NCBI GenBank assembly: GCA_041660505.1
Contig: JBAZWG010000001.1
Coordinates: 609,768 to 673,767, forward strand
Direction of reading: 5' to 3'
DNA length: 64,000 nucleotides
Source of the DNA: Minisyncoccota bacterium
GTDB taxonomy: Bacteria; Patescibacteriota; Minisyncoccia; Phycocordibacterales; JACRKE01
The position numbers were made by a program, and so were the translations under genes. The notes under the pieces are model-generated. The model was not told the DNA's origin and searched no databases. It saw nothing but the letters and a program-made list of their open reading frames with translations. Below, in pieces: positions 3,765 to 56,899 of this stretch (its first letter is position 1; each line of letters begins with the position of its first letter).

Positions 3765-3977
3765 ATGCATAAACTGAACCACATTTGGCAAAATAGACTC
3801 GTGACCATCCTCGGCTTCATTGTCCTTGTATTGCCACTTACCGGCTTCCCGCACAGTTGGACAGATAACTTTTATTTTTTACTCGGCTTAGCTATCGTCA
3901 TCATCTCATTCCAGCTCGGCAGATTCTTGGTCTATGGCGAAGAGCATGGCGAAAATAATGTTAAAGGGAAAAAATAA
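3765..3977 (+). CDS. small two-helix membrane protein (hypothetical)
   Basis: 70-aa ORF with two hydrophobic helices; overlaps the next gene start. Confidence 0.3.
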   Translation: MHKLNHIWQNRLVTILGFIVLVLPLTGFPHSWTDNFYFLLGLAIVIISFQLGRFLVYGEEHGENNVKGKK

Positions 3978-5322
3978 GATACTCGCACTCGCCTTAGCTG
4001 GGCTCTTTGCGGGCTTTGTTCTTATTGGGGGAGCTTCTCGCCTGCCTTTTATCAGCAAATATCTGCAAGCGAGCAGTGTTTACGTACGCGATACACCAGA
4101 GCCGATAGCAATAAAAGTTGCTTCTACAACGCAAGATCAAGCCAAGTTTGCCTTTATCGCGCCGGTAGTTGCATTACACGAGCCGCGGCCGGAAAAATTG
4201 AAGGCGATATATATATCAAGCTGGTCGGCCGGCTCGGCGACACAGATGAAGCGTCTCATCGGCCTTATAGATCGCACAGAAATAAATGCCGTCGTAATAG
4301 ATATTAAAGATGCGACAGGCGAGATCGCCTTCCATGTGAACGATCCGGCGCTTAAGGCGATGGGCACGGAATCCAATCGCATCGGCAATATAGATAGTCT
4401 TATCAAAGAGCTTCATGCTAAAAATATTTACGTCATCGGCCGAGTCTCGACCTTCCAAGACCCGCTCTTCGCCAAGATCCATCCAGAACTTGCGGTCATT
4501 CGCAAAAGCGATGGCAAATTTTGGCGCGATAGGAAAGGTTTAAGCTGGCTTGACGCCGGCGCCAAGAAGACTTGGGACTATATTATTGCAATAGCGAAAG
4601 AATCTTACTCAAGAGGCTTTGACGAAATTAATTTCGATTACATCCGCTTCCCCTCGGATGGGAATATGAAAGATATCGCCTACAGATTTTATGACGAGGC
4701 CAAACTTACTAAACCGGCGCAAATGAAATTATTTTATGAATATCTGCACAATGCGATGCAAGATAGCCCCACCCCCAACCCCTCCCCGAAGGAGAGGGGA
4801 GGAATATTTTCAAGCGACCAAGGTCTCTCCTCAAGGAGCGAAGCGGGAAGAGGTGAGTCCTTGGTCTCCACCGCCATCCCGCACTCCGCCGACCTCTTCG
4901 GTATGACCACAACCGCCGACGATGATATGGGTATCGGCCAGATGCTGACTGACGCGCTCCCATACTTCGACTATATTTGCCCGATGATATATCCATCGCA
5001 TTACGGCCCGGGCATCAACGGTTACAAAAAGCCGGCGCAATATCCGTACGAAATGGTGGCGTATGCCCTTGAAGGCGCTCTTGCTAAAGCCTCCTCGACC
5101 GACAAGTGGCAAGGTGAGTCCTTACCTAAAGGGGAAGGTCTCTCCTTGCCACCAAGCTATAAAAAAATCGTCCCATGGCTCCAAGACTTCGACATGGGCG
5201 CCACCTACGACGCAGGTATGGTAAGAGCCCAAATAAAAGCGACAGAAGACGCCGGCCTAACGAGCTGGTTACTGTGGGATCCTGCAAACAGATACACAGA
5301 GGGGGCTTTGCAGAAGGAATAG
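3934..5322 (+). CDS. putative glycoside-hydrolase-like TIM-barrel protein (GHL/DUF187-like), membrane anchored, with in-frame low-complexity insertions
   Basis: N-terminal TM anchor; motif GFDEINFDYIRFPSDG recalled from GHL-type putative glycosidases; contains the in-frame repeat that encodes SPTPNPSPKERGGIF. Confidence 0.5.
   Translation: MAKSMAKIMLKGKNKILALALAGLFAGFVLIGGASRLPFISKYLQASSVYVRDTPEPIAIKVASTTQDQAKFAFIAPVVALHEPRPEKLKAIYISSWSAGSATQMKRLIGLIDRTEINAVVIDIKDATGEIAFHVNDPALKAMGTESNRIGNIDSLIKELHAKNIYVIGRVSTFQDPLFAKIHPELAVIRKSDGKFWRDRKGLSWLDAGAKKTWDYIIAIAKESYSRGFDEINFDYIRFPSDGNMKDIAYRFYDEAKLTKPAQMKLFYEYLHNAMQDSPTPNPSPKERGGIFSSDQGLSSRSEAGRGESLVSTAIPHSADLFGMTTTADDDMGIGQMLTDALPYFDYICPMIYPSHYGPGINGYKKPAQYPYEMVAYALEGALAKASSTDKWQGESLPKGEGLSLPPSYKKIVPWLQDFDMGATYDAGMVRAQIKATEDAGLTSWLLWDPANRYTEGALQKE
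4771..4803. repeat. GC-rich palindromic element copy (CCCCTCCCCGAAGGAGAGGGG family), in-frame inside a CDS
   Basis: Same core as copies at 18383, 21061, 41002 and 41047; here it encodes PNPSPKERGG. Confidence 0.75.
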
Positions 5323-7171: not shown

Positions 7172-7870
7172 ATGTCCGAAACCAGAGAAGAGTTGCAGGT
7201 GCGGCTCGGCATCAAGTTCAATAATCCAGAGTTGCTGGCCGAGGCCCTTCGGCACAAGTCAGTCTCGCCACTCGGCAAGAAAAACAAACCGCAACCGCCG
7301 TATGAACGACTCGAATTCTTCGGCGACGCTGTGATTGACTACGTCGTGAGCAAGCGCCTTTTCCGGCGAAGCCCGCCACTGTCTCAAGGGCGCATGACCC
7401 AGGCGTTCACGAGCCTCGCTTCGCGTATGGCGCTTGGTGAGCTGGCAGAGGAAATAGACCTCTTCCCTCACATCGAGTTCTGCCCTGGCTTTGGCGACAA
7501 CATGTCTATCGAGTTGAGACATAATGTCGTCGGGGACGTCTATGAGGCTCTCGTCGGTGCCATCCACGAGGACCAGGGCTTCGAGACTGCTGAGAATTTC
7601 GTCGAACGCACGGCCATGGCGAAACTCGATGAACTGCTCGCCGGCAAGAACCTTCTCGACCACAAGAACCAGCTTTCTCGGTTCTTGCAGGGTCGTCATC
7701 ACAAGAGAGTCTACCCAGAGTACCAGCTCATCGGGCGTAAGTCTGATGGCGTCTACGTCTCTCAAGTGAGTCACGACGGCAAGAACCTCGGCCAAGGCGA
7801 AGGCAAGACCCAGACCGCCTCAGAGCTCAATGCCGCCAAGGAGGCGCTCGAGATTCTCAAGAAGCGGTAG
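7172..7870 (+). CDS. rnc: ribonuclease III
   Basis: RNase III signature ERLEFFGDAV; DVYEALVGAI; C-terminal dsRBD-like region. Confidence 0.85.
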   Translation: MSETREELQVRLGIKFNNPELLAEALRHKSVSPLGKKNKPQPPYERLEFFGDAVIDYVVSKRLFRRSPPLSQGRMTQAFTSLASRMALGELAEEIDLFPHIEFCPGFGDNMSIELRHNVVGDVYEALVGAIHEDQGFETAENFVERTAMAKLDELLAGKNLLDHKNQLSRFLQGRHHKRVYPEYQLIGRKSDGVYVSQVSHDGKNLGQGEGKTQTASELNAAKEALEILKKR

Positions 7871-8546: not shown

Positions 8547-9404
8547 ATGAGCAATGGAACGTTGGTTGATCCAGTGAGTCCAGAAGAGTACCACCGGGCG
8601 AGGCAGAAGTTGCAAGAATTCTTTACCAAGAAGGGTCTCACCTGGGCGGTCGCTCAGCAGAGGCTCTCAATTCTCTCGGCCTGCGAGAACCATCTCTCCA
8701 TCGCGCTCCACGCATTTGCCGGCCAGACCTGGCCACTCCATCAGACGAACCAGATGGAGTTGGAAAAGATGCTCTTGGAGAACCAGGGGTCGACGGGCTA
8801 TTTCTGCGACACGACCTCGTATCGCGAGGAACCGACCCCCAAGAAGGGCAGGCACAACCTGATCTTCCCTATGGTGGAGTTCGAGCTCCCAGGGAACTTC
8901 GAGGTGCTCCTGGCCTTCCTGCAGGATCTCGTCCAGCACCTCGGATTCGTCAAGGCGCCGGCCCCCGTCGTTGACTACCGCGACTACGCCAAGAAGTGCG
9001 GAGTCGAGGAGCTCGGCGATGAACACGAAACCCAACTCTTCCGCGAGCTCGGTCCGGTCGTGATGCTCGTCGACTTCCCGATGAGCACCTCGCCGTTCTG
9101 GAACATGCGGCTCGACGGCGGTCCCGGCGAAAAGATCGCACGAAAGTGCGACGTCATCGTCTGCGGACAGGAGACGATCGGTAGCGCCGAGCGCTCTTGC
9201 GATCCCGAGCAGATGCGGAAGTCCTTCCGTGCAGTCTCTGGTGGAGACTACGCGAGGACGCTCTTCGCACGCTTCTGCAGCGGGCGGGTCCTGGAGGAGT
9301 TGGAAGACTTCCTCTCGCTTCCGTTCTTCCCGCGCTGTGGCGGAGGAATCGGGATGACCCGGCTCATCCGGGCTACACGGATGGTCGGCCTCATTGACAA
9401 GTAG
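8547..9404 (+). CDS. class II aminoacyl-tRNA synthetase catalytic-core paralog (EpmA/AsnA-like, no anticodon-binding domain)
   Basis: Class IIb motif 2 YREEPTPKKGRHNLIFPMVEFEL and motif 3 GGGIGMTRL; about 285 aa, so the catalytic core only; RBS AAGGAGG 8 nt before the ATG at 8547. Confidence 0.65.
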   Translation: MSNGTLVDPVSPEEYHRARQKLQEFFTKKGLTWAVAQQRLSILSACENHLSIALHAFAGQTWPLHQTNQMELEKMLLENQGSTGYFCDTTSYREEPTPKKGRHNLIFPMVEFELPGNFEVLLAFLQDLVQHLGFVKAPAPVVDYRDYAKKCGVEELGDEHETQLFRELGPVVMLVDFPMSTSPFWNMRLDGGPGEKIARKCDVIVCGQETIGSAERSCDPEQMRKSFRAVSGGDYARTLFARFCSGRVLEELEDFLSLPFFPRCGGGIGMTRLIRATRMVGLIDK

Positions 9405-9420
9405 TACGGTCAACCTAGAA

Positions 9421-9455
9421 CCGGCTCCCTTCGTTCGCGAAGGGAGCCGGTTTCG
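9421..9455 (+). terminator. hairpin terminator CCGGCTCCCTTC-GTTCGC-GAAGGGAGCCGG followed by TTTCG
   Basis: Perfect 12-bp stem right after the aaRS-like gene. Confidence 0.55.
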
Positions 9456-9468
9456 CGTCTGCCTAGCA

Positions 9469-9512
9469 TTAGAAGGTTCAACCTTTTTGATGCTTAAGGT
9501 TGAACCTTCTTG
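9469..9512. repeat. AAGGTTCAACCTT / AAGGTTGAACCTT double-palindrome hairpin element (family copy a)
   Basis: Arms AGAAGGTTCAACCTT and AAGGTTGAACCTTCT are perfect reverse complements. Confidence 0.7.
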
Positions 9513-9583
9513 TGCGTTATAAAACGAAAAGGGGATCGCGACCTTGCGGTTGCGACCCCCTTTTGAACCAGATGAAAGCAGGA

Positions 9584-10189
9584 TTACTTCTTGCCCTTGC
9601 CGACGTCCATACTCACGGGGATGTCGGCTTCGCAGAACGAGCACTCCTCCGATGCCCATGAGTCGAGAGTGATGTTCACTAGCGACTCAAGCCTCGGCGC
9701 GCCAATATCGAAAGCGGTGACGCCTCCGCGATTGCAGATAGCGCCCACGCCCACGACCTCGCCGCCGATGGCGCGGACGACCTCGACGACCTTCTTCACC
9801 GAGCCGCCGGTCGTCAGGACATCCTCGACGACGAGCACTGTCTTGCCAGCCACGATCTTGTCGTAACCGCGCTTCACTACGAACCCGCCGTCGGCCGACT
9901 TCTCGGCGTAGACACTCATTGCGTCTGAGTGTACGAGCTCCGAGAGTTGATAGGCCACCCATTGGGAGAGGATGAGCCCGCCCATCGCGGGCCCGACGAC
10001 CACCTGCGGTCGTTCTGCCAAGAAGCGGCCGGCCAGGTACAGGCAGAGCTCGCCCGTCAACCTAGGATGCACGTAAATCGCATCCTTGTTGATGTACCTG
10101 TTGCCGTGCCGGCCACTTGTGTAGACGAAGTGGCCCTCGAGTAAGGCACCCACTGCCTTGATCTTCTCCATGACACTGACTTCTTTCAT
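9584..10189 (-). CDS. pyrE: orotate phosphoribosyltransferase
   Basis: PRTase motif VLVVEDVLTTGGS; start set at MKEVSVMEKIKAV, since the ORF track start is further upstream. Confidence 0.78.
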   Translation of the reverse strand: MKEVSVMEKIKAVGALLEGHFVYTSGRHGNRYINKDAIYVHPRLTGELCLYLAGRFLAERPQVVVGPAMGGLILSQWVAYQLSELVHSDAMSVYAEKSADGGFVVKRGYDKIVAGKTVLVVEDVLTTGGSVKKVVEVVRAIGGEVVGVGAICNRGGVTAFDIGAPRLESLVNITLDSWASEECSFCEADIPVSMDVGKGKK

Positions 10190-10205
10190 GAGACCTCCTT
10201 GCGGG

Positions 10206-11021
10206 TCATGATCGGTATCGGTTGATTGCGTCATGCAGTCGCTGCGTCTCGCGTCGCGCCGCCTCTGCGAAGTTCTGTCCGCCACCGGCGAAGATGATGC
10301 TCCGTGAGGCGGCAATGATCATGCCTTGACCCCGCGAGTCTTTGCCAGCAGCGACGGTCGCTTCGAGATCTCCGCCTTGCGCGCCGATACCCGGGACGAG
10401 GATTGGCATGTCGCCGACAATCTTGCGCACGGCGCGCAGTTCGTCGGGATATGTTGCGCCGACGACCACGGCACAGTTGCCGTTCTCGTTCCATGCGCAT
10501 GCAACGTTCAGGGCGACCACTCGGTAGAGCGGCACGCCGCCGACGAGCAGATTCTGGAATTCGCCGGCGCCGACATTTGACGACCTGCAGACGATTATAC
10601 AACCCTTGTCCTTCTGGGCGAGGAATGGCTCGAGAGCCTCCTTGCCGAAGTAAGGGTTCAGGGTGACGGCGTCGGCGTGCAGGTATCCGAACGCTTGCTC
10701 GACGTAGCCGACATTGGTGTTGCCAATGTCGGCGTACTTGGCGTCCAAGATGATCGGCACCTCGGGGGCGATGGCATTCGCCTCCGAGACGGTGTGATAG
10801 AGCGCGAGGATGCCCTCGATGCCTTGTGCCACGTAGAAGGCCAAATTGACTTTGTACGCGCAGACGAGGTCGCTGGTGTGCTCGATGATGGCGCGGTTGA
10901 ACGCGCGAATCCTATCGAGCTTCGACGGGTACTTGACCTCCGCCGGGATCTTGCCGAGCTCGCTGTCGAGTCCGACGCAGACGCTCTTGCCTTGCTCCCA
11001 CCGAGCCTTGAGCATCTCCAT
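10206..11021 (-). CDS. pyrF: orotidine 5'-phosphate decarboxylase (long type 2 form)
   Basis: ILDAKYADIGNT matches the OMPdecase DxKxxDIxNT motif; about 270 aa from MEMLKAR. Confidence 0.75.
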   Translation of the reverse strand: MEMLKARWEQGKSVCVGLDSELGKIPAEVKYPSKLDRIRAFNRAIIEHTSDLVCAYKVNLAFYVAQGIEGILALYHTVSEANAIAPEVPIILDAKYADIGNTNVGYVEQAFGYLHADAVTLNPYFGKEALEPFLAQKDKGCIIVCRSSNVGAGEFQNLLVGGVPLYRVVALNVACAWNENGNCAVVVGATYPDELRAVRKIVGDMPILVPGIGAQGGDLEATVAAGKDSRGQGMIIAASRSIIFAGGGQNFAEAARRETQRLHDAINRYRS

Positions 11022-11164
11022 GAAGTTTCTGGTCTTCAAATTCTGCCTCGCTTTCACTTGGTTCAATGAACAGTATGAGCCGGACTATCCGGCTCAAAAT
11101 CTCCTTGACACTATCAAAAATATAGTTAGAAATCAAGCTCGAAAATTTGCGGGAAATTATTTTT

Positions 11165-11210
11165 AAAACAAAAACAGGATGCCGGCTACAGAGAGCTTGC
11201 ATCCTGTTCG
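11165..11210 (-). terminator. intrinsic terminator after pyrD (CAGGATGC..GCATCCTG plus TTTTTGTTTT on the minus strand)
   Basis: 8-bp stem, T-run on the minus strand. Confidence 0.5.
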
Positions 11211-11230
11211 AGCGAACATTACCGGACGAG

Positions 11231-12124
11231 TCATTCGTCGGTGAGTTCGCTAAGGATCGATGAGAATATGGTCTCGCCCCGCTCCAGATAAGCGGTGGCG
11301 ATTTGCACGGCCGAGGCACCGGCCAAGATGTACTCGCGCACGCCGGTGCTATGGATAATGCCGCCGACGCCTATGAGTTGCTGGGTGCTCGGCAGGAGCG
11401 CACGCAGTTGCCTGACCTGCCCCAGGCCGATAGGCTTTAGTGCCGGGCCGGCCATGCCCGCGAGTCCTCCGGCTGGAGTGATTCGTGGCGCTTCACCATT
11501 GAGGCCGAAGGCGTTGGGAAAGGTGTTGACGGTTGTGACCGCCTTCACCAACTTCGACTTGCCGATCACCTCCGCCACTTGCGCAAGTTGGAAAGGGTCG
11601 GAGTAAGGCGAAACCTTACACGCGATCTTCGCCTCGGCTCCGACCCACGTTTCTACCTGTCGCAAGATGTTCGCAACAAGCACGGGGTCGAAGCAGGCAA
11701 TCCGCTTCTGCATCCCGCCCTGCCAGACGTTGGGACAGCCGAGGTTGAGCTCGACCATGTCGGCCCCGCCGGCGAAGGCGATCTTAGACATTATCGCGTA
11801 CTCCTCGGCCGAGAAGCCGGCGATACTCACGAAGAGTGGCTTGCCATGCGCATGTGCCTCCGCCACCATCGCGGGCAGTTTGAGCCCATAGTACTCTATC
11901 CCTCTATTCGGCAAGCCGAGAGAGTTTAGCGAGTAATCTGACTCTACCCAGTACACGTTGCCACCGTTGCCTTGACGAGGCTCCATGGTGATAGAGCCGA
12001 CCATGATGGCCGCGGTGGCAGAACGGGCGAGCTGGCTTACCTCCTCCAGCAGCCGGCAGGTACCCGCCGCGTTCATGAGCGGGTGCTCAAGCGGGATACC
12101 GGCGAGCGTAGTTTCAAAGTTCAT
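11231..12124 (-). CDS. pyrD: dihydroorotate dehydrogenase, class 1
   Basis: ELNLGCPN motif and TIM-barrel FMN-binding profile; RBS AAGGAGG before the ATG. Confidence 0.82.
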   Translation of the reverse strand: MNFETTLAGIPLEHPLMNAAGTCRLLEEVSQLARSATAAIMVGSITMEPRQGNGGNVYWVESDYSLNSLGLPNRGIEYYGLKLPAMVAEAHAHGKPLFVSIAGFSAEEYAIMSKIAFAGGADMVELNLGCPNVWQGGMQKRIACFDPVLVANILRQVETWVGAEAKIACKVSPYSDPFQLAQVAEVIGKSKLVKAVTTVNTFPNAFGLNGEAPRITPAGGLAGMAGPALKPIGLGQVRQLRALLPSTQQLIGVGGIIHSTGVREYILAGASAVQIATAYLERGETIFSSILSELTDE

Positions 12125-12217
12125 GTGACCTCCTTAAGGTCTTTTTTTGTGCTCGTTATTCTCTTTATGCTGTATGTAAGTTAACAAATATGACCTGTTT
12201 TATCAACACAAAAAAAC

Positions 12218-12246
12218 TTGCATAAAGACGCAATCTGTGCTATTAT
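12218..12246 (+). promoter_or_regulatory. promoter TTGCAT-N17-TATTAT (gTGcTATTAT extended -10), same architecture as the rnc promoter
   Basis: Exact spacing; followed by a 110-nt leader and RBS GAGGAGGG before the ATG at 12355. Confidence 0.5.
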
Positions 12247-12354
12247 CCATACCAGCTTGCTACCGTCCCTGATTACTTCAGGGTATGTTGCGGGAGCAAA
12301 TGAGACAGAACGCCCCAGAAAAATCTAGAGCGTTTTGTGTTTAGAGGAGGGACA

Positions 12355-12555
12355 ATGTCCTCGGTCTTCCACCCTACGGATCTGCTCGTCTTTCCCGCGC
12401 ATACCGAGCATGCGCGGCTGATTCTGCTCGCAGTTTGCGAGCATGAGGACGAGAAGATCCACTTCGAGGCGGCTCGGGCCGCAGACGTTCCCGTGCTTGT
12501 CGCGCTCTGCGACGTGTACGGGATTCCCCACACGGTCCAGCAGGAGGTGAGGTAA
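12355..12555 (+). CDS. small hypothetical protein, first of a coupled pair
   Basis: RBS plus ATG at 12355; stop overlaps the next ATG (TAAGATG). Confidence 0.4.
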   Translation: MSSVFHPTDLLVFPAHTEHARLILLAVCEHEDEKIHFEAARAADVPVLVALCDVYGIPHTVQQEVR

Positions 12556-12556
12556 G

Positions 12557-12760
12557 ATGGGACGACCCCCTTTCCGCACCACCGGCAGATACAGGTCACC
12601 GGCCGTTCAGCCGGAGAAGCCCATTGGCCGCTTCGGCAACGAGGATCCGCGGATTCTGCTGAACGAGCAGGAGCCGGCGGATCCCGAGGCCCAGCGCCGG
12701 GCCAACGTCCTCATGGGGCGCGACCCGGATGAGAAGGACCCTGGGCCGCCCCTCCTCTGA
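12557..12760 (+). CDS. small hypothetical Pro/Arg-rich protein, second of the coupled pair
   Basis: Tightly coupled to the upstream ORF; followed by an imperfect hairpin plus T-run at about 12790-12840. Confidence 0.4.
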   Translation: MGRPPFRTTGRYRSPAVQPEKPIGRFGNEDPRILLNEQEPADPEAQRRANVLMGRDPDEKDPGPPLL

Positions 12761-12935
12761 CACTCCCGCAACACTCGGTAAAGATCGCCCCGGTTCGCGC
12801 GTACACCATACGCTGCGAGCCGGGGCTTTCGACTTTTTATACACTTTGCGCTAGATATCTTTTATAGTATAGTAAATAGAATATTTATCTGCCTCTACGG
12901 CAGACCGCCGATGAGGCGGTTAATAAGAATAATTT

Positions 12936-13403
12936 ATGAATAATCGCAACATTGCAATTGTCATAGCCATCATCGTCATAATTATCCTCGGATACTTTAT
13001 GTTTTCGAAGAAGGCAGTGACCGCACAGAACGGCTCGGTTGTTACAGTTAATTACGTCGGCTCGCTCCAGAACGGCACCAAGTTCGATGCCTCGGCAGAT
13101 CACGGCGGTCCGCTCACACTTACACTCGGCCCTATTGGTCCGAACGGTGAAGGCTACGTCATCCCGGGTTGGGAAGAGGGACTTATCGGTATGACAGTCG
13201 GAGAGAAGAAGCACCTCGTTATTCCGCCGGAGAAAGCTTACGGCGACAAGCAGATGGGCCCTATCCCGCCGAACTCGACTCTTGTCTTCGATGTAGAAAT
13301 GCTTGATATCCAGCCAGCCGGCCCGAAGCCAGTAGAGCCTCATTTCCCACCGGCACCGGCCTTGGCCCAGCCAGAAACACAGGGCACAACTACAACGCAG
13401 TAG
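12936..13403 (+). CDS. FKBP-type peptidyl-prolyl cis-trans isomerase with N-terminal membrane anchor
   Basis: VTVNYVGSLQNGTKFD...GYVIPGWEEGLIGMTVGEKKHLVIPPEKAYG...LVFDVEMLDI is the canonical FKBP domain. Confidence 0.82.
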   Translation: MNNRNIAIVIAIIVIIILGYFMFSKKAVTAQNGSVVTVNYVGSLQNGTKFDASADHGGPLTLTLGPIGPNGEGYVIPGWEEGLIGMTVGEKKHLVIPPEKAYGDKQMGPIPPNSTLVFDVEMLDIQPAGPKPVEPHFPPAPALAQPETQGTTTTQ

Positions 13404-13423
13404 CCCACTGGCAGAGGTTCGAC

Positions 13424-13449
13424 CTTAGGCATTCAAAAGGTCGAACCTC
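13424..13449. repeat. hairpin element variant GAGGTTCGACCTT...AAGGTCGAACCTC (family copy b)
   Basis: Perfect 13-bp inverted repeat about 85 nt upstream of rpsN. Confidence 0.6.
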
Positions 13450-13532
13450 AAGAATGCATGCCAATACTTGCGTTAAGCCGTATAATTTGATAGTATTTCA
13501 TTCAAGCTCTTACGTAGAGCTTGAATGCTTTT

Positions 13533-13718
13533 ATGGCAAAAACATCAGTAATCGCGCGTTCGAAAAAGACGCCTAAATTCTCGACCAGATTGGTCCGCCG
13601 CTGTTTCCGTTGCGGTCGCAAGCGCGGCTACATGCGCGACTTCGACGTTTGCCGAATTTGCTTCCGCGAGCTAGCGAATGAAGGCATGATCCCGGGCATC
13701 CGGAAGTCAAGCTGGTAA
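13533..13718 (+). CDS. rpsN: 30S ribosomal protein S14 (zinc-binding type Z)
   Basis: MAKTSVIARSKK...CFRCGRKRGYMRDFDVCRICFRELA, CxxC...CxxC, 61 aa. Confidence 0.88.
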   Translation: MAKTSVIARSKKTPKFSTRLVRRCFRCGRKRGYMRDFDVCRICFRELANEGMIPGIRKSSW

Positions 13719-13728
13719 AATAATGACA

Positions 13729-13769
13729 AGAAGGTTCAACCTTTAAGATGCCCAAGGTTGAACCTTCTA
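13729..13769. repeat. AAGGTTCAACCTT double-palindrome hairpin element (family copy c)
   Basis: GAAGGTTCAACCTT-TAAGATGCCC-AAGGTTGAACCTTC; ends about 15 nt before the rpsH start. Confidence 0.7.
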
Positions 13770-13783
13770 GACAAAAATATTTC

Positions 13784-14182
13784 ATGACCATCGACCCATT
13801 AGCAAACATGCTCATCCAGATCAAGAACGGTAGCGTCGCCAAAAAGGAGACGATTACCGTGCCTTTGTCTAACATGAAGTTTGCTGTCGCAGAAGTTCTT
13901 AAGCGCGCCGGATTCGTGAAGGACACAGCCAAGCGCGGCAAGAAAGAGAATCGCTCATTCGAGATTGACTTGGCTTACACAACAGAAGGCGAGCCGAAGG
14001 TCACGGGCGTGGAGCGCATCTCCAAACTTTCGCGCCGAGTCTATGCCGGCGCCGGCGAGATTCGCAACTTGCGCCGAGGTAAGCCTGGTATGATGATACT
14101 CTCGACACCGAATGGTATCCTGACAGCATCGGAGGCCAAGAAAGCGAATGTTGGCGGGGAAGTTTTGTTCGCCATTTGGTAA
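13784..14182 (+). CDS. rpsH: 30S ribosomal protein S8
   Basis: MTIDPLANMLIQIKNG is the S8 N-terminus; the ORF-track start at 13748 lies inside the repeat, so the start was moved to 13784. Confidence 0.88.
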   Translation: MTIDPLANMLIQIKNGSVAKKETITVPLSNMKFAVAEVLKRAGFVKDTAKRGKKENRSFEIDLAYTTEGEPKVTGVERISKLSRRVYAGAGEIRNLRRGKPGMMILSTPNGILTASEAKKANVGGEVLFAIW

Positions 14183-14228
14183 TGGCTCACAGATTTAAAC
14201 ATTTCAAGATTTAAATATTTAAAAACTC

Positions 14229-14765
14229 ATGTCACGCGTCGGCAAACAAATTATCGAAATACCCGCAAAAGTTGAGGTTACGCTCAGCACCGGTACGATG
14301 CGCATCAAAGGACCTTTGGGCGAACTCACCAGAGAATTCAAAGACGACATCGAGATTACAATTGCCGACAAGCAAATTACACTTAAGCCGAAAGTCGAAA
14401 CGATTTTTACCCGCTCGCTCTGGGGCACATACGCCGCACACATCATCAACATGATCAAGGGCGTGACGGAAGGTTACATGAAGAAGATGACGATAGAGGG
14501 TGTCGGCTATAAAGTGGAGCTCAAAGGCACACAGCTCGTCTTCGCTCTCGGATTTTCTCACCCAGTACCGATGGATATCCCTAAGGGCATCAAAGCTGTT
14601 GTAGAGAAGAACGTTTTGACTATTTCCGGACCGGATAAAGATCTGGTCGGATTATTCTCCGCGCAGATTGTGGCGCACAAACCGCCGGAGCCGTACAAGG
14701 GTAAGGGTATAATTTACGCCGGTACTGTCGTCCGCAGGAAGCAGGGGAAGAGGTCTGTTGCTTAA
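14229..14765 (+). CDS. rplF: 50S ribosomal protein L6
   Basis: MSRVGKQIIEIPAKVEV..., two-domain L6 profile, 178 aa. Confidence 0.9.
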   Translation: MSRVGKQIIEIPAKVEVTLSTGTMRIKGPLGELTREFKDDIEITIADKQITLKPKVETIFTRSLWGTYAAHIINMIKGVTEGYMKKMTIEGVGYKVELKGTQLVFALGFSHPVPMDIPKGIKAVVEKNVLTISGPDKDLVGLFSAQIVAHKPPEPYKGKGIIYAGTVVRRKQGKRSVA

Positions 14766-14769
14766 CGGC

Positions 14770-14813
14770 TTAGAAGGTTAAACCTTCTAGATGCCCAAGG
14801 TTTAACCTTCTAA
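14770..14813. repeat. AAGGTTAAACCTT double-palindrome hairpin element (family copy d)
   Basis: TTAGAAGGTTAAACCTTCTAG-ATGCCC-AAGGTTTAACCTTCTAA, perfect 17-bp arms; the 44-mer is identical to copy e. Confidence 0.75.
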
Positions 14814-14826
14814 GACAAGACAAAAC

Positions 14827-15177
14827 ATGAAAACAACAAATTCAAAAAAATTAAAACGAGACCGACGCCACACGAAGATCAGGACGCGCGTTTTTGGTAC
14901 GTCTGCCAAGCCTCGCCTCGCAGTCTTCCGTTCCAACGCTTTCGTCTACGCACAGATTATCGATGATGAGGCGGGCAAGACACTTTTGGCCGCGAGCGAC
15001 CTCAAAATGAAAGATGGGACCAAGCTTGCGCGCGCAGAAAAAGTGGGCGAGACGATAGCTGTGGCTGCCAAGGCGAAGAAAATCGGTACTGTTGTATTTG
15101 ATCGCGGCGGATTCATCTACGCCGGACGCGTTAAGGCTGTTGCCGATGCCGCACGTAAAGGAGGATTGCAATTCTAA
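14827..15177 (+). CDS. rplR: 50S ribosomal protein L18
   Basis: [28 protein letters not shown]... is an L18 profile. Confidence 0.9.
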
Positions 15178-15213
15178 AGTTGAAAGTCAAAAGTATAAAG
15201 TTCATAAAGTAAA

Positions 15214-15879
15214 ATGGAAGACACTACAAAAAAAACAGAATCAGCAGTTCCTACGCCGAAGCCAGCCGGTAGCCCGATTTACGTACCCAAGGAGCCTTCA
15301 AGAAGCTATCAAGGACAAGGCGGCCCGCGCAATTCGAGCGGTCCTCGCACGGGAGGTGCTCCGGGGGGAGGTCAAGGAGGCTTCGGCGGACAGCGCGGAG
15401 GTCCGCGCGGTCAAGGTGGCCGAGGCGGAGACAGGCGTGCACCGCGCACACCTTCGGAATACGATCAGAAAATTTTGAACATTCGCCGTGTGGCGCGTGT
15501 TGTGGCCGGTGGCCGTCGCTTCACTTTCTCTGTCGCTATGGTGCTCGGCAACCGCAAGGGTTCTGTCGGCGTCGGTGTCGGCAAGGCGGGAGATACGACC
15601 TTGGCTATCGACAAAGCTTCGCGTGTTGCCAAGAAGCACATGATCAAGCTCAACCTGACGAAGGACAAATCCATCGCTCACGAAATCACCGAGAAATACT
15701 CAAGCGCGACAGTAATGCTCCGCCCGGCCAAGGGTAAGGGGCTTGTTGCCGGCAGTGCTGTGCGCTCTGTGCTCGAGCTCGGCGGTGTAACAGACACGAC
15801 AGCGAAGATTCTTTCACCGTCGAAGAACAAATTGAACATCGCGCAAGCGACGATAAAGGCACTGAACAAACTCAAATAA
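15214..15879 (+). CDS. rpsE: 30S ribosomal protein S5 with Gly/Arg-rich N-terminal extension
   Basis: Conserved S5 core ILNIRRVARVVAGGRRFTFSVAMVLGN...; unusual about 80-aa GGRGG/GQRGG low-complexity N-terminus. Confidence 0.9.
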   Translation: MEDTTKKTESAVPTPKPAGSPIYVPKEPSRSYQGQGGPRNSSGPRTGGAPGGGQGGFGGQRGGPRGQGGRGGDRRAPRTPSEYDQKILNIRRVARVVAGGRRFTFSVAMVLGNRKGSVGVGVGKAGDTTLAIDKASRVAKKHMIKLNLTKDKSIAHEITEKYSSATVMLRPAKGKGLVAGSAVRSVLELGGVTDTTAKILSPSKNKLNIAQATIKALNKLK

Positions 15880-15888
15880 TTTTAACGA

Positions 15889-15933
15889 CTTAGAAGGTTA
15901 AACCTTCTAGATGCCCAAGGTTTAACCTTCTAA
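15889..15933. repeat. AAGGTTAAACCTT double-palindrome hairpin element (family copy e, identical to copy d)
   Basis: Identical 44-mer and nearly identical downstream spacer CTAAGACAA(G/A)ACAAAACATG. Confidence 0.75.
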
Positions 15934-15942
15934 GACAAAAAC

Positions 15943-16374
15943 ATGCAATCCCACGAACTCAAGCGCAAACATCCGAATAAACGAACCAAGCTCGTTGGCC
16001 GTGGCAGTAAGCGCGGTAAGACGTCCGGTCGCGGTACCAAAGGCCAGAACGCCCGCGCCGGTCACAAAAAACGCCCCGAAATTCGCGAGCGTATCAAGAA
16101 GATTCCTAAACTCCGCGGTTATCGCTGGAACGGTGCTATTATGGACAAGGCGATTGTCATTAATGTCGGCGACCTGAACAAGTTCGAGGCCGGCGCCGAG
16201 GTTACCCCGCGCACGCTCGTGAAGAAGCATCTCATCAATATGCCGAAGGATGCGCGCATGATTGTGAAGATTCTTGGCGGAGGCGAAATCAAGCTTGCCT
16301 ACAAAGTTTCTCACTGCTTCGTCTCGAAGAGTGCAAAAGAGAAGATTGAGAAAGCGGGAGGAACAGTGAAATAA
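15943..16374 (+). CDS. rplO: 50S ribosomal protein L15
   Basis: KRTKLVGRGSKRGKTSGRGTKGQNARAG is the L15 N-terminus; it follows S5 directly, so no L30 gene is present. Confidence 0.9.
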   Translation: MQSHELKRKHPNKRTKLVGRGSKRGKTSGRGTKGQNARAGHKKRPEIRERIKKIPKLRGYRWNGAIMDKAIVINVGDLNKFEAGAEVTPRTLVKKHLINMPKDARMIVKILGGGEIKLAYKVSHCFVSKSAKEKIEKAGGTVK

Positions 16375-16434
16375 TGAACTCGGAAGCCTTGCTTCTGAGA
16401 ACAAGACCCGGAAGCGAGGCTTCCAAGTACAAAA

Positions 16435-17706
16435 ATGGACAAATTCATAGAAAAACTCAAAGTTGTTTTCGGAGATAAGAACCTGCGCAACCGGGTCTAT
16501 TTCGTTCTCGGCGCGCTTATTATCTTCCGCTTCCTTTCATCTATTCCCATTGCGGGCGTTGATAAACTCAAGCTCGATCAATTGCTGACAGGCAATCAAT
16601 TCCTCGGCTTCTTGAACATTTTCTCCGGCGGCGGGCTCTCGACCCTTTCTATTGTCATGCTCGGAGTCGGCCCCTATATCACCGGCTCTATTATAATGCA
16701 GCTCCTTACTATCATCTTCCCCAAGCTTAAGGAGATGTATCAAGAGGATGGCGAAGCTGGCAGAAAGAAGTTCGTTCAATATTCACGTCTCCTCACCGTG
16801 CCTCTGGCAATCTTCCAGGGCTTCGGACTTTTATTTTTACTTCGCCAATCAGGCGTCGTTGTGGCCGACACTGTCTTCGATCAGATGGTTAACATCATCG
16901 TCGTCACTGGCGGCTCTGTCCTCGTGATGTGGATAGGCGAGCTTATGACCGAATATGGCATAGGCAACGGTACGTCTATAATAATCTTCGCAGGTATCAT
17001 TGCACAGATGCCGTCGACTATCGGCCAGATGTTCGCCTCGTTTACTGTGGCGCAGATCCCGACCTATCTCGTATTTCTCGTAGTCTCCATCATCATCATC
17101 GCCGGTGTAGTAATAATTACAGAAGCAGAGCGCCCAGTGCCAGTGACTTATGCCAAGCGTGTGCGCGGGGCCAAGATGTACGGCGGTGTTTCGACGTATC
17201 TGCCGATACGCTTGAATCAGGCAGGCGTCATGCCGATAATTTTCGCGCTCTCGCTCTTGCTTTTGCCCCAGATGATAGCGACATTCCTCCTCGGCCTGCA
17301 TCAGTCAACTTTGCAGGCGATAGGAACATTCCTTCGCGACTTGGTGGCGAACCAGCTTTACTATGCGATCTTCTATTTCCTTCTCGTTTTTCTCTTCACT
17401 TACTTCTATACGGCCATCACCTTCGACCCAGACAATATCGCGACAAACTTACAGAAGAACGGCGCCTTCATCCCCGGTGTTCGCCCCGGCAAGCCGACGG
17501 CCGAGCACTTATCCCGTATTCTCGTGCGCGTGACCTTTGTCGGCGCATTATTCCTTGGTATAATCGCAGTGTTACCTCTGGGCATCAGATCTATTACCGG
17601 CATCACCGCGTTATCTATCGGCGGTACCTCGCTCCTCATCGTTGTGTCCGTGGTGCTTGATCTCATTAAGCAGATGAACGCGCAGATCTCGATGAGAGAG
17701 TACTAA
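16435..17706 (+). CDS. secY: preprotein translocase subunit SecY
   Basis: 10-TM profile, 423 aa, canonical position after rplO. Confidence 0.9.
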   Translation: MDKFIEKLKVVFGDKNLRNRVYFVLGALIIFRFLSSIPIAGVDKLKLDQLLTGNQFLGFLNIFSGGGLSTLSIVMLGVGPYITGSIIMQLLTIIFPKLKEMYQEDGEAGRKKFVQYSRLLTVPLAIFQGFGLLFLLRQSGVVVADTVFDQMVNIIVVTGGSVLVMWIGELMTEYGIGNGTSIIIFAGIIAQMPSTIGQMFASFTVAQIPTYLVFLVVSIIIIAGVVIITEAERPVPVTYAKRVRGAKMYGGVSTYLPIRLNQAGVMPIIFALSLLLLPQMIATFLLGLHQSTLQAIGTFLRDLVANQLYYAIFYFLLVFLFTYFYTAITFDPDNIATNLQKNGAFIPGVRPGKPTAEHLSRILVRVTFVGALFLGIIAVLPLGIRSITGITALSIGGTSLLIVVSVVLDLIKQMNAQISMREY

Positions 17707-17719
17707 AGAATCAAGCGAA

Positions 17720-17756
17720 AAGGTTCAACCTTAAGTATCAAAAAGGTTGAACCTTA
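17720..17756. repeat. AAGGTTCAACCTT double-palindrome hairpin element (family copy f)
   Basis: AAGGTTCAACCTT-AAGTATCAAA-AAGGTTGAACCTT between secY and adk. Confidence 0.7.
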
Positions 17757-17781
17757 GAATTCCGCTTGATACAATATTCAC

Positions 17782-18378
17782 ATGCAACTCAAAACCGTCA
17801 TCTTCATGGGTCGCTCCGGTTCCGGTAAGGGGACGCAGGCGAAGTTGCTTGTCGATGAACTCGTCCTAAAAGGCGTGAACGTTAACGACATAATGAACGT
17901 CTCATCCGGGGAACTCTTCCGCGCTTTTGCTAAGGATGGCGGTTATACTCAAGACAAGATTCGCGCCGTAATGGCGGCGGGCAATCGCGTCCCGGACTTC
18001 CTCGCTGTGCGCCTCTGGGGTAATTGGCTGGTGCAGACATATCGCCCGAGTTTGAATATTATTTTGGACGGCACCCCGCGCTCGCACGCCGAGGCGCGCA
18101 TGCTCGAGAACGCCCTCGTTTTTTATGAACGCAACCCGATAGAGATCGTCAATATCAAAGTGTCTAACGAGTGGTCTATAGAACGCTTATCGGCGCGCAA
18201 ACGCTTGGACGATTCATCCCTTGATACCATCAAGCATCGCCTCGCTTTTTATGAAGACGATGTGCTCGAGGCGATAGATTATTATCGCGGATCGCCCAAA
18301 GTCCGCTTCTCTGAGATTAACGGCGAACAGACGATAGAAGAGGTGCATAAAGATGTCTCAAAGGCGGTATTTGGATAA
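17782..18378 (+). CDS. adk: adenylate kinase, short form lacking a zinc LID
   Basis: P-loop GRSGSGKGTQA; NIILDGTPRS; 198 aa; canonical position after secY. Confidence 0.82.
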   Translation: MQLKTVIFMGRSGSGKGTQAKLLVDELVLKGVNVNDIMNVSSGELFRAFAKDGGYTQDKIRAVMAAGNRVPDFLAVRLWGNWLVQTYRPSLNIILDGTPRSHAEARMLENALVFYERNPIEIVNIKVSNEWSIERLSARKRLDDSSLDTIKHRLAFYEDDVLEAIDYYRGSPKVRFSEINGEQTIEEVHKDVSKAVFG

Positions 18379-18422: not shown

Positions 18423-19184
18423 ATGTCGTATATCAAATCTTCACAAGAAATAGAGATTTTGCGAGAAGGCGGGCGGAGGCTCGCTCTTGTGCTTAAAGAG
18501 GTTGCAGCCGCAACGAAGGCCGGAGTGATGCCGAAAGAGCTTGATGCGCTTGCAGAGAAATTAATTCGTGCGGGCGGTGATGAGCCGGCATTTTTAAACT
18601 ATCAGCCCGACATGGCGCGCATACCATTCCCTGCGACATTATGTGTATCGGTAAACGACGCCGTTGTGCACGGTATTCCGGGCGAGACTCCGCTCGTGAA
18701 CGGCGACATCGTCGGTCTCGACCTCGGGCTCAAACACCGAGGGCTTTTTACCGATGCCGCGGTCACTGTCGCTATCGGTAAAATCAGTAAAGAAGCAAAA
18801 GAGCTTATGAAAATCACGCGTGAAGCATTAGAGCTCGGCATCAATGAAGCTAGAGCCGGCAATTACACTGGCGACATTGGCTACGTCATCGAACGTCATG
18901 TTGCACCGCATCACTATGGTATTGTGCGCGAACTATCGGGCCACGGTGTCGGCCATGAGATTCATGAAGAGCCGTACATTCCCAATTATGGCAAAAGGGG
19001 AGAAGGCATGAAATTAAAAGCGGGCATGGTCATTGCGATTGAGCCGATGATAAACCTTGGTAGTGGCGATATCCGACTTGCAAAAGACAAATTCACCTAC
19101 GCGACCAAAGACGGTTCTCTCTCCGCCCACTTCGAGCACACGCTGGTCATCACCGACGGCGCACCCGAAGTTCTCACGCGTTAA
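18423..19184 (+). CDS. map: methionine aminopeptidase type I
   Basis: Pita-bread fold metal ligands at VHGIP, GDIVGLD, HGVGHEIHE and IEPM; 253 aa. Confidence 0.9.
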   Translation: MSYIKSSQEIEILREGGRRLALVLKEVAAATKAGVMPKELDALAEKLIRAGGDEPAFLNYQPDMARIPFPATLCVSVNDAVVHGIPGETPLVNGDIVGLDLGLKHRGLFTDAAVTVAIGKISKEAKELMKITREALELGINEARAGNYTGDIGYVIERHVAPHHYGIVRELSGHGVGHEIHEEPYIPNYGKRGEGMKLKAGMVIAIEPMINLGSGDIRLAKDKFTYATKDGSLSAHFEHTLVITDGAPEVLTR

Positions 19185-56650: not shown

Positions 56651-56713
56651 ATCTTTAGTTTAAAAATTAAATATCAAAAATCAAAATTTGAACTTTGATT
56701 TTTTATTTTTGAT

Positions 56714-56899
56714 TTATGGAAGTACGAGGTAGCTCGATAATTCCTTGCGGCGCACTTCGAGCTCGACTCCGCGCTTGTTGCGAAGCTGTTTCGAACGGCT
56801 CTCTTTGGCATTAAAGTGATTTTGCCCGGGCTTGCGACCGATGACCTTGCCGTTCTTGGTCACGCGGAAGCGCTTGGACATTGATTTCTTTGTTTTCAT
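56714..56899 (-). CDS. rpmI: 50S ribosomal protein L35
   Basis: MKTKKSMSKRFRVTKNGKVIGRKPGQNH is the L35 profile. Confidence 0.85.
   Translation of the reverse strand: MKTKKSMSKRFRVTKNGKVIGRKPGQNHFNAKESRSKQLRNKRGVELEVRRKELSSYLVLP

Follow-up and report, generated by a model that had tools for sequence, protein, structure and literature searches.

Hairpins between ribosomal protein genes of a Paceibacterota genome look like copies of a selfish, REPIN-like palindromic repeat

The window analysed here, a 64,000-nucleotide stretch of a Paceibacterota genome, carries the spc ribosomal protein (r-protein) operon, an infC-rpmI-rplT operon and rnc; its gene map was scored by codon usage and the gene identities were taken from Pfam. 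Within positions 9466–17755 lie six hairpins, each consisting of two AAGGT-NNN-ACCTT 13-mers around a loop that is exactly 10 nt long in 6/6 copies (Table 1). An initial annotation of this DNA had recognized six copies and placed four of them inside the spc operon. Both points were borne out, with coordinates that we corrected to the stems including their extensions (9466–9515 for the first copy to 17720–17755 for the last) and with the four junctions assigned from Pfam. The cores are exact in five copies (AAGGTT[C/A]AACCTT-N10-AAGGTT[G/T]AACCTT), and the copy at 13414 has the variant core GAGGTTCGACCTT-N10-AAGGTCGAACCTC. The loop motif AGATGCCC is found in 3/6 copies and appears in reverse orientation in the loop of the 13414 copy.

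Table 1. Positions and settings of the repeat doublets and of neighbouring features in the window.
Feature	Coordinates	Setting	Sequence	Stem and RNA fold
Copy 1	9466..9515	convergent genes on either side (9.4 kb); flanked by two unrelated hairpins	AAGGTTCAACCTT-TTTGATGCTT-AAGGTTGAACCTT	4-bp outer extension; -28.6 kcal/mol
Copy 2	13414..13449	starts 10 nt past the FKBP stop codon; upstream of the rpsN promoter	GAGGTTCGACCTT-AGGCATTCAA-AAGGTCGAACCTC (variant, loop reversed)	-22.1 kcal/mol
Copy 3	13724..13773	rpsN-rpsH spacer; stem 10 nt past the rpsN stop, ending 15 nt before the rpsH ATG (13784)		15-bp stem, 13729-13768
Copy 4	14769..14814	rplF-rplR spacer; stem 3 nt past the rplF stop, ending 12 nt before the rplR ATG		perfect 18-bp stem
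Copy 5	15889..15934	rpsE-rplO spacer; stem 9 nt past the rpsE stop, ending 8 nt before the rplO ATG		perfect 18-bp stem
Copy 6	17720..17755	secY-adk spacer		13-bp core stem and outer helix 17710-17773; -27.1 kcal/mol
Degenerate seventh doublet	5106..5152	within a DUF4015 gene (3934-5322; Pfam)	AAGGTGAGTCCTT ... AAGGTCTCTCCTT	21-nt arms, 86% complementary
rnc	7172-7870			
Promoter-like site	17747-17775	overlapped by copy 6	TTGAAC-17-TACAAT	

A scan of the window allowing at most one mismatch yielded 20 strand-hits where 0.22 were expected and where shuffled sequences reached a maximum of 1 (n = 100); the general core was found 15 times against 1.49 expected. Folded as RNA, the six copies reach free energies between -21.9 and -28.6 kcal/mol (z-scores between -5.2 and -8.1), and their stems measure 13–18 bp, with an outer helix added at copies 1 and 6. 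All six are inverted doublets, and comparing them reveals C/G to A/T changes that are paired across both arms. The copies before rplR and rplO, already noted as identical, match over 50 nt (14769–14818 and 15889–15938), which together with the paired arm changes we take as signs of recent copying. The degenerate seventh doublet is translated in frame as KWQGESLPKGEGLSLPP, giving a tally of six extragenic copies and one intragenic copy in the window. No 13-mer core was detected over 53 kb of the contig (window positions 17756–64000 plus 6.8 kb beyond), and the infC-rpmI-rplT operon holds no copy.

The six hairpins belong to a widespread family. Searching with the pattern AGGTTNRACCTT-N6-14-AAGGTYNAACCT returned at least 120 stretches, nearly all labelled as Patescibacteria MAGs (Saccharibacteria, Paceibacterota subgroups and Microgenomates); among the Patescibacteria matches listed, several classes are represented and there are often several loci per genome. 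The earlier suggestion of a genome-specific REP-like repeat thus survives in its second half only: the repeat is REP-like, and its core is shared by these lineages. Of the 128 exact doublets among the matches listed, 116 have centre triplets that complement each other, and the TNA/TNA doublets, whose orientation the pattern does not force, comprise 58 inverted, 4 direct and 3 other arrangements. The stems of listed doublets are frequently extended outward by complementary bases that are not conserved, and the spacing between 13-mers varies from 6 to 14 nt across the family. Complementary centres, variable spacing and flank complementarity together suggest a single strand that folds.

Many copies lie within genes, as though inserted at the DNA level. 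By a stricter, still rough open-frame criterion (at least 60 open codons), 64 of the 128 listed doublets sit deep in an ORF, a fraction below the random-insertion expectation for a gene-dense genome. A NifS-like gene contains 3–4 in-frame copies, NusA has one copy inside NusA_N and another at its C-terminus, and a doublet is present in the SecA of one locus (L164). LepA of locus L163 carries a 13-aa insert, IPQGRTLNTDSQG, that is missing from LepA of L161, a pair that represents a filled and an empty site. We saw no transposition event, excision polymorphism or high-identity empty site, the closest relative standing at 85–92% protein identity. The flanks of the 128 listed doublets and of 20 gene-flanking singlets contain no constant GTAG or CGTC tag; GTAG appears only as part of a lineage-specific stem extension, for example in L168.

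A Y1_Tnp homologue is encoded in 11 of the 120 listed hairpin loci (binomial P about 4e-9), and in two of them (L012 and L112) a doublet stands on both sides of the Y1 gene. We also approached this association independently from the protein, fetching seven Y1 gene contexts. A 13-mer lies 27–55 nt upstream of the Y1 start in 7/7 contexts, at +157 to +169 of the gene in 6/7 and at the stop codon in 7/7. Exact 13-mers number 18 in 5.7 kb around Y1 genes and 9 in 135 kb elsewhere (~0.07 per kb), a 47-fold enrichment.

The encoded transposase is a conserved protein of 220–240 aa with a Pfam Y1_Tnp domain, in which the HUH motif (N80 H81 x H83) and Y141-x-H-L-N-P are invariant across 46 sequences. 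Its top NCBIfam match is NF047646, 'REP-associated tyrosine transposase' (RAYT), at 26–47 bits, under the cut-off of 80, and a PDB sequence search with the protein returned no match. The best PDB fold match of an AlphaFold model (pLDDT 83.8) is 4ER8, TnpA-REP with a REP hairpin (E 7.7e-6, target-normalised TM 0.68), ahead of the IS608, ISDra2 and IS200 transposases. Clusters of the Y1 gene at 90% identity are mostly confined to one contig. As the window and 6.8 kb beyond it (70.8 kb of this contig) hold no RAYT-like or Y1 gene, a transposase link for the genome studied here is drawn from other genomes.

The position of the hairpins in the spc operon invites a regulatory reading. They could be selected RNA elements that punctuate r-protein mRNA, through processing by RNase III or another enzyme or as 3'-end stabilisers, and so set the relative amounts of the cistrons; the palindromes recruited for this task would differ between lineages, and a mobile origin would be compatible with this through exaptation. 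Five of the six intergenic copies do fall within a run of eight successive junctions that begins at FKBP–rpsN and continues into the spc spacers (post hoc P about 0.001); the stems begin 3–10 nt past stop codons; many relatives hold other long hairpins in spc-type spacers (-20 to -38 kcal/mol); rnc is encoded in the window, as the initial annotation stated; and co-transcribed Correia hairpins are known RNase III targets (PMC10969869). We nonetheless regard such selection as unlikely. None of the 120 listed CPR hairpin loci lies in an spc operon, copies elsewhere in CPR are found in unrelated settings and within ORFs, in several relatives the genes at the corresponding junctions have hardly any spacer between them, the infC-rpmI-rplT operon lacks a copy, and the loop is reversed in one copy.

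Translational operators bound by r-proteins for autogenous control, which the initial annotation had also proposed, would fit hairpins placed 8–15 nt upstream of the rpsH, rplR and rplO starts and the near-identical leaders of rplR and rplO. This idea is largely refuted already and we consider it very improbable: identical elements follow secY, the FKBP gene and an aaRS-like gene, the family occurs beside and inside non-ribosomal genes, and the repeat is in 0/40 of the relatives' spc operons fetched via S5, an outcome of the kind that the initial annotation had named among its grounds for refutation. The repeat also lacks the positional conservation and r-protein restriction expected of an r-protein leader, 0 of the 120 listed CPR hairpin loci lying in an spc operon, and it matches no Rfam family; at the gathering threshold a tRNA is the sole Rfam match in the window, and at E<=1 the sole match in 9300–17900 is a chance miRNA-precursor (E 0.21). 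The hairpins had been described as lying directly upstream of starts that lack a Shine-Dalgarno sequence (SD). Those starts are indeed SD-less, but the trait is not specific to the hairpins, because all nine genes of the spc cluster lack an SD, including those without a hairpin in front; on the same ground we rejected the hairpin as a supply of, or replacement for, an SD. A promoter role was set aside as not general, since a promoter-like site is overlapped by one copy alone, that between secY and adk. AAGGTTCGACCTT resembles the T-arm of tRNA (GGTTCGA), but we rejected a link to it as well, as there is free variation in the centre triplet (TCG, TCA, TAA, TGA, CAG). Strong stems right after stop codons would also suit intrinsic terminators or attenuators within the operon; however, a U-tract follows 0/6 copies, the terminator scan lists none of them and the flanking genes must be co-expressed, so that this reading is scarcely credible.

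The 13-mer is a 5+5 palindrome with the geometry typical of dimeric sites, and one stands upstream of the Y1 start, which could make each doublet two adjacent double-stranded operators for a dimeric transcription factor or nucleoid protein. Against this, the centre triplets are complementary and not identical (58 inverted versus 4 direct), the spacing is variable and complementarity extends into non-conserved flanks, and we hold it to be highly improbable. DNA uptake sequences for natural competence in CPR would be expected to have a core conserved across the phylum, inverted pairs after genes, like those of Neisseria DUS, and copies in coding regions too, all of which the family displays. The low density away from the Y1 gene and the 53 kb of contig with no copy speak against uptake, and an uptake signal would not be expected to recur so closely about a transposase gene; we give this possibility almost no weight.

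We consider it probable that the hairpins are REPIN-like doublets that a RAYT-like enzyme mobilised and that landed in spc spacers, and are not r-protein-specific operators, because the repeat is dispersed and in part intragenic, its 13-mers flank a Y1/HUH gene and the fold of the encoded enzyme is nearest to TnpA-REP (4ER8). Nor is the position of the repeat conserved: the 40 relatives' spc operons lack it, and the closest relatives have unrelated palindromes in the same spacers. Each element is built as an inverted pair of one short REP-like unit, itself a mini-hairpin with a 5–8 bp stem closed by AAGGT/ACCTT and a 3-nt loop. A RAYT-type Y1/HUH tyrosine transposase would copy these units in trans, recognising them as folded single-stranded DNA. 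In the genome studied here, copies would have inserted a few nt past stop codons, between the cistrons of rpsN-rpsH-rplF-rplR-rpsE-rplO-secY-adk, and two spc copies appear to have been duplicated recently. Because they are located inside the operon, the hairpins should be transcribed and folded. The co-transcribed copies would then form very stable stems without a U-tract and serve at most as passive mRNA punctuation that impedes 3'-exonucleases or is perhaps cut by a double-strand RNase. Cleavage by RNase III, whose substrates are double-stranded RNA stems of about two helical turns, may occur as a side effect, as co-transcribed Correia-element hairpins are cleaved by it in Neisseria (PMC10969869), although nothing here requires it. 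A more elaborate version, to which we assign only a small chance, is that the hairpin and its RAYT-like enzyme are ancient partners, passed on vertically in much of Patescibacteria and kept because the host uses them, with the hairpins as punctuation in SD-less operons, QGxTL-type surface loops in essential proteins and self-regulation of the enzyme through its internal unit.

The REPIN-like reading removes a tempting one that lacks support, namely that this CPR bacterium has a novel operator for r-proteins or an RNase III code. In its place stands a testable proposal: Patescibacteria, with their very small and streamlined genomes, would carry a selfish element of the REPIN/RAYT type with a 10-nt core shared across classes and with copies in essential operons and essential proteins (LepA, SecA, NusA and a NifS-like enzyme). 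The proposal is relevant to the persistence of repeats in reduced genomes and to where small insertions in CPR proteins come from. It is also of use in annotation, where the hairpins inflate ORFs and spacers and a simple pattern masks them. In the literature that we searched, the repeat was not described, the 13-mer did not occur and no paper connected REP/RAYT with CPR taxa.

REPINs are defined as inverted doublets of short palindromic units that fold into a hairpin (PMC3116915). The CPR repeat shares this architecture, and the compensatory changes in its arms, with the REP/REPIN-RAYT systems of E. coli (BIME/TnpA-REP) and Pseudomonas fluorescens (PMC3116915). REP copies are found immediately past coding regions and in part inside genes (PMC3733652), as are those of the CPR repeat, and in other CPR genomes a Y1/HUH gene is flanked by units, as in the REP/RAYT arrangement, and encodes an enzyme whose fold is nearest to 4ER8. 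The two differ in several respects. REP units bear a GTAG or CGTC tetranucleotide at one end (PMC3733652), a tag that the CPR repeat lacks. The CPR doublet spans 36–50 nt, whereas Pseudomonas REPINs measure about 70–110 nt; its 10-nt core is constant across class-level lineages, in contrast to the genus-specificity of REP/REPINs; and about half of the listed copies are intragenic, whereas REP/REPINs are predominantly extragenic. The CPR transposase, at 220–240 aa, is longer than TnpA-REP (4ER8 chain, 165 aa) and falls below the NCBIfam RAYT cut-off, and unlike RAYT genes, its gene carries one unit within its own reading frame.

Structural matches also reveal a likeness to IS200/IS605 elements, in which a Y1/HUH enzyme acts on single-stranded DNA hairpins and the gene is bracketed by small hairpins. 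Structural and profile matches nevertheless favour the RAYT branch for the CPR enzyme, the dispersed CPR copies are hairpin doublets without a gene, and the Y1 clusters, mostly on one contig each, seem unlike a multi-copy IS. Correia elements are MITEs of about 100–150 bp that have terminal inverted repeats and duplicate a TA target; the CPR copies show no visible target duplication. Like the hairpins described here, the Correia/NEMIS elements of Neisseria are small inverted-repeat elements that are co-transcribed and form hairpins in mRNA, and their cleavage by RNase III supplies a precedent for the processing sites that the initial annotation proposed (PMC10969869). Rickettsia palindromic elements (RPE) are in-frame palindromes in unrelated, often essential genes of a host-dependent bacterium with a reduced genome, as is the case here (PMC10969869). 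They are larger (about 100–150 bp, adding 30–50 residues) than the CPR elements (36–50 nt, adding 11–14 residues), and the sequences are unrelated. For the related CGTC-tagged repeats, no dedicated transposase has been identified (PMC3733652), whereas the CPR repeat has a physically linked candidate.

The hairpin family flagged in the initial annotation is real: with at most one mismatch allowed, AAGGTTMAACCTT gave 20 strand-hits in the window, versus 0.22 from shuffles (maximum 1). Five copies are exact doublets, pairs of 13-mers following the pattern AAGGTT[C/A]AACCTT-N10-AAGGTT[G/T]AACCTT; a sixth is a variant, and a degenerate seventh within a DUF4015 gene translates in frame as KWQGESLPKGEGLSLPP. 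All six intergenic copies have a 10-nt loop and arms of 13-20 nt, stem extensions included. Three loops contain AGATGCCC, and the loop of the copy at 13414 carries the same motif reversed. Folded as RNA, the copies reach -21.9 to -28.6 kcal/mol at z-scores from -5.2 to -8.1, and the copies preceding rplR and rplO, already described as identical over 44 nt, proved identical across 50 nt. We confirmed the gene map by Pfam. The gene starts behind the hairpins had been singled out as lacking a Shine-Dalgarno sequence; they do lack one, but so does every spc gene, hairpin or none, and the trait is therefore a property of the operon.

Repeat copies, genes and neighboring structures (window positions unless an L-number is given; L-numbers denote DNA stretches fetched from other genomes)
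Feature	Position	Basis or detail
Degenerate doublet	5106-5152	in DUF4015 gene
rnc	7172-7870	Pfam
Three unrelated hairpins in succession	9405-9583	between convergent genes
Perfect G+C-rich stem	9419-9452	15 bp
REPIN-like copy	9466-9515 (the exact doublet at 9473 with its stem extension)	between convergent genes
Exact doublet	9473-9508	
Bidirectional terminator	9527-9564	A-run/T-run
FKBP	12936-13403	Pfam
Sixth doublet, variant	13414-13449	GAGGTTCGACCTT-N10-AAGGTCGAACCTC
Promoter-like site of rpsN	within 13458-13532	
rpsN leader hairpin	13499-13527	12 bp
rpsN leader hairpin, relatives	L151 ~2270-2300; L156 ~995-1025	
rpsN	13533-13718	Pfam
Exact doublet	13731-13766	
rpsH	13784-14182	Pfam
rplF	14229-14765	Pfam
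Exact doublet	14774-14809	
rplR	14827-15177	Pfam
rpsE	15214-15879	Pfam
Exact doublet	15894-15929	
rplO	15943-16374	Pfam
rplO-secY spacer hairpin	16375-16431	21-nt arms
secY	16435-17706	Pfam
Exact doublet	17720-17755	
adk	17782-18378	Pfam
map	18423-19184	Pfam
rpmI|rplT inverted repeat	56651-56715	AT-rich, 25-nt arms
7-nt-repeat hairpins/arrays	L124 653-745, 1091-1180	
7-nt-repeat hairpins/arrays	L135 4709-4800, 7334-7420	
7-nt-repeat hairpins/arrays	L143 4827-4890	
7-nt-repeat hairpins/arrays	L151 2520-2560, 3537-3580	
In-frame 13-mer of Y1 gene	L163 10158-10170 (example)	L161-L164 and L166-L168, about +157 to +169
Nested half-unit duplications	L164 9925-9985; L163 9935-9985	5' of Y1 gene
26-nt repeat pair	L161 10672-10700, 11643-11670	

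To see how far the repeat extends, we scanned the GTDB collection (one genome per species) with AGGTTNRACCTT-N6-14-AAGGTYNAACCT. At least 120 stretches matched, nearly all of those listed coming from Patescibacteria (CPR) MAGs, so the repeat is not genome-specific as had been offered. Groups represented among the matches listed are Saccharibacteria, Kaiser-, Taylor-, Wolfe-, Vogel-, Yanofsky-, Lipton- and Nomurabacteria, Moraniibacteriota, Minisyncoccia, Paceibacterota, Levyibacteriota and Gottesmanbacteria, and several genomes contributed four to six loci each. About a dozen listed matches bear non-Patescibacteria labels as given in the records, including uncultured Gammaproteobacteria and Bdellovibrionales from a single automated binning series, one Bathyarchaeia record and one Tenacibaculum record, the last with a direct repeat.

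The 128 exact doublets among the matches listed define AAGGT-NNN-ACCTT as the conserved part of each arm. The center triplets of the two arms are complementary in 116 of these 128 (TCG/CGA, TCA/TGA, TAA/TTA and others), and inverted doublets outnumber direct ones by 58 to 4 (3 other) in the TNA/TNA subset, whose orientation is independent of the search pattern. Loops range from 6 to 14 nt, most commonly 10-11 nt, and stems frequently continue outward through complementary yet non-conserved bases. This architecture is characteristic of a single strand folded on itself; a pair of duplex binding sites is very unlikely given the complementary centers, the inverted orientation and the stems extending into non-conserved flanks. 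Each 13-mer with its immediate flanks also forms a small hairpin by itself (for example GACAAGGT-CGA-ACCTTGTC), and the doublet is therefore two such units, inverted.

Half of the doublets listed (64/128) lie within an ORF at a depth of at least 60 open codons. A NifS-like aminotransferase with a Pfam match split in two contains three or four copies, RFDLGNSKRSNL among them; NusA has a C-terminal copy and one within NusA_N, whose 119-position profile takes up 155 residues; SecA also contains one. In the LepA protein of L163, QPVRMVY and LNLIDTPGH are separated by 13 inserted residues, IPQGRTLNTDSQG; LepA of L161 provides the empty counterpart, and a second insert near residue 190 is common to both. 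Intragenic copies are read in all three frames across the core. AAGGT-NNN-ACCTT doublets thus behave like inserted DNA.

The initial annotation had also considered a regulatory role in ribosomal-protein operons. We compared 40 spc regions from relatives (S5 identity 57-78%; S14 92% and L6 85% in the closest): none contains an AAGGT/ACCTT doublet, and the 120 CPR hairpin loci listed all lie outside spc operons, which argues against that idea. The two closest relatives (L151 and L156) have the same FKBP-rpsN arrangement as the window and other palindromes in the same spacers, namely (CGGAGMT)n repeats and long AT-rich inverted repeats, respectively. Other long hairpins occupy these spacers in many more relatives, and in some there is hardly any spacer. 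In the window, five of the six intergenic copies fall within a run of eight successive junctions that starts with FKBP|rpsN and ends with secY|adk (P about 0.001, post hoc); of its other co-directional spacers, most are short and lack structure, and no copy occurs in the infC-rpmI-rplT operon or in the 6.8 kb past the window. In the transcript, the stems of the spc copies must be stable, and because no U-tract follows them they are not intrinsic terminators. As a possible consequence, the spc stems could block 3'-exonucleases or be cut by RNase III; RNase III cleavage of hairpins has been shown for Correia elements (PMC10969869). The copies probably have little or only a modulatory effect on spc expression.

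Other structures accompany the repeat in these regions. Between rplO and secY lies an unrelated hairpin (spacer fold -32.3 kcal/mol), which brings to five of eight the spacers from rpsN to map with a strong stem. A promoter-like site of its own and a leader hairpin ending 5 nt upstream of the ATG precede rpsN; the two closest relatives retain this hairpin with a compensatory change in one pair, more distant ones lack it, and it may be a lineage-specific S14 leader. The spc spacers of relatives contain long hairpins or arrays with arms of tandem 7-nt repeats, (GCTnnTA)n, (GGCnCTA)/(TAAAGCC)n, (GCGTTTA)n and (CGGAGMT)n, a class distinct from AAGGT-NNN-ACCTT at the same kind of site. The rpmI|rplT inverted repeat, on the minus strand, likewise falls outside the family. 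S5 of the window is 221 aa with a long N-terminal extension, and no L30 gene (rpmD) lies between rpsE and rplO (15879-15943); the lack of L30 is a trait typical of CPR bacteria.

In L080, a 235-aa Y1_Tnp-domain protein adjoins the NifS-like gene. Of the 120 hairpin loci listed, 11 contain a Y1_Tnp homologue, versus about one by chance (P about 4e-9); doublets bracket the Y1 gene in L012 and L112, adjoin it in L036, L114 and L035, and lie within it in L064 and L049. As an independent test from the protein side, we collected at least 7,721 Y1 homologues at E<=1e-10, the named ones being "transposase" in Patescibacteria and most 90% clusters lying on one contig. Seven 20-kb contexts, picked on contig size alone, all have a single 13-mer 27-55 nt 5' of the Y1 start codon and another at the stop codon, and six carry a further one within the gene, at +157 to +169. 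Exact 13-mers number 18 in the 5.7 kb around these genes versus 9 in the remaining 135 kb, a 47-fold enrichment, and five contexts also contain dispersed, mostly intragenic doublets.

The best NCBIfam match of the Y1 protein is "REP-associated tyrosine transposase" (RAYT), at 26-47 bits, below the cut-off of 80. An HUH motif (N80-H81-x-H83) and Y141-x-H-L-N-P are invariant in 46 sequences. The AlphaFold model (pLDDT 83.8) best matches 4ER8, E. coli TnpA-REP with bound REP hairpin (E 7.7e-6), ahead of the IS608, ISDra2 and IS200 transposases, showing a predicted fold that is RAYT-like. The in-frame unit encodes QGxTL, nearly invariant in the 46 homologues (G54, T56, L57), and may serve self-regulation or be an insertion that became fixed. 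Beside the 13-mer 5' of the gene, nested half-unit duplications (CTCACCGCAAGGTT / CACTCACCGCAAGGTTCGACCTTGCGTTA / GACCTTGCGTTA) resemble one unit inserted in another's 3-nt loop and may hint at the target site. In L161, two identical copies of the 26-nt ATCCTAGCGAGGTTCGACCTTGATAC, 970 nt apart, bracket a 165-aa hypothetical gene adjoining the Y1 gene.

The simplest account is that the window hairpins are REPIN-like doublets of a REP-like unit, the option of the initial annotation supported by the inverted doublets, the intragenic copies and, in other genomes, Y1 genes flanked by 13-mers. In this account a RAYT-like transposase of the Y1 family would work on single-stranded DNA to copy the doublets, which would have colonised the intercistronic spacers of the spc operon. 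We infer that the Y1 enzyme moves the doublets and that the window's genome encodes an enzyme of this kind.

The literature searched yielded no description linking RAYT/REPIN to Patescibacteria, the one paper to mention both being an unrelated study of primer coverage, and none linking REP to CPR classes; because coverage was incomplete, a prior description elsewhere is possible. None of six 13-mers appeared in relevant work; two mycology papers and one on CueR, all unrelated, contain one each. For CPR genome biology the family is a lead worth pursuing. Unlike classical REPs, it lacks the GTAG/CGTC tag, is very small and has a core common to several classes, and the CPR transposase is longer, falls below the curated RAYT threshold and has an in-frame unit in its own gene. 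The family matches the published definition of REPINs as inverted REP doublets forming hairpins, with compensatory arm changes and RAYT genes flanked by units (PMC3116915). It also shares the placement habits of REPs, which lie just 3' of coding regions, sometimes provide stop codons and are sometimes intragenic (PMC3733652), and its frequent in-frame insertion into genes is reminiscent of the palindromic elements of Rickettsia (PMC10969869).
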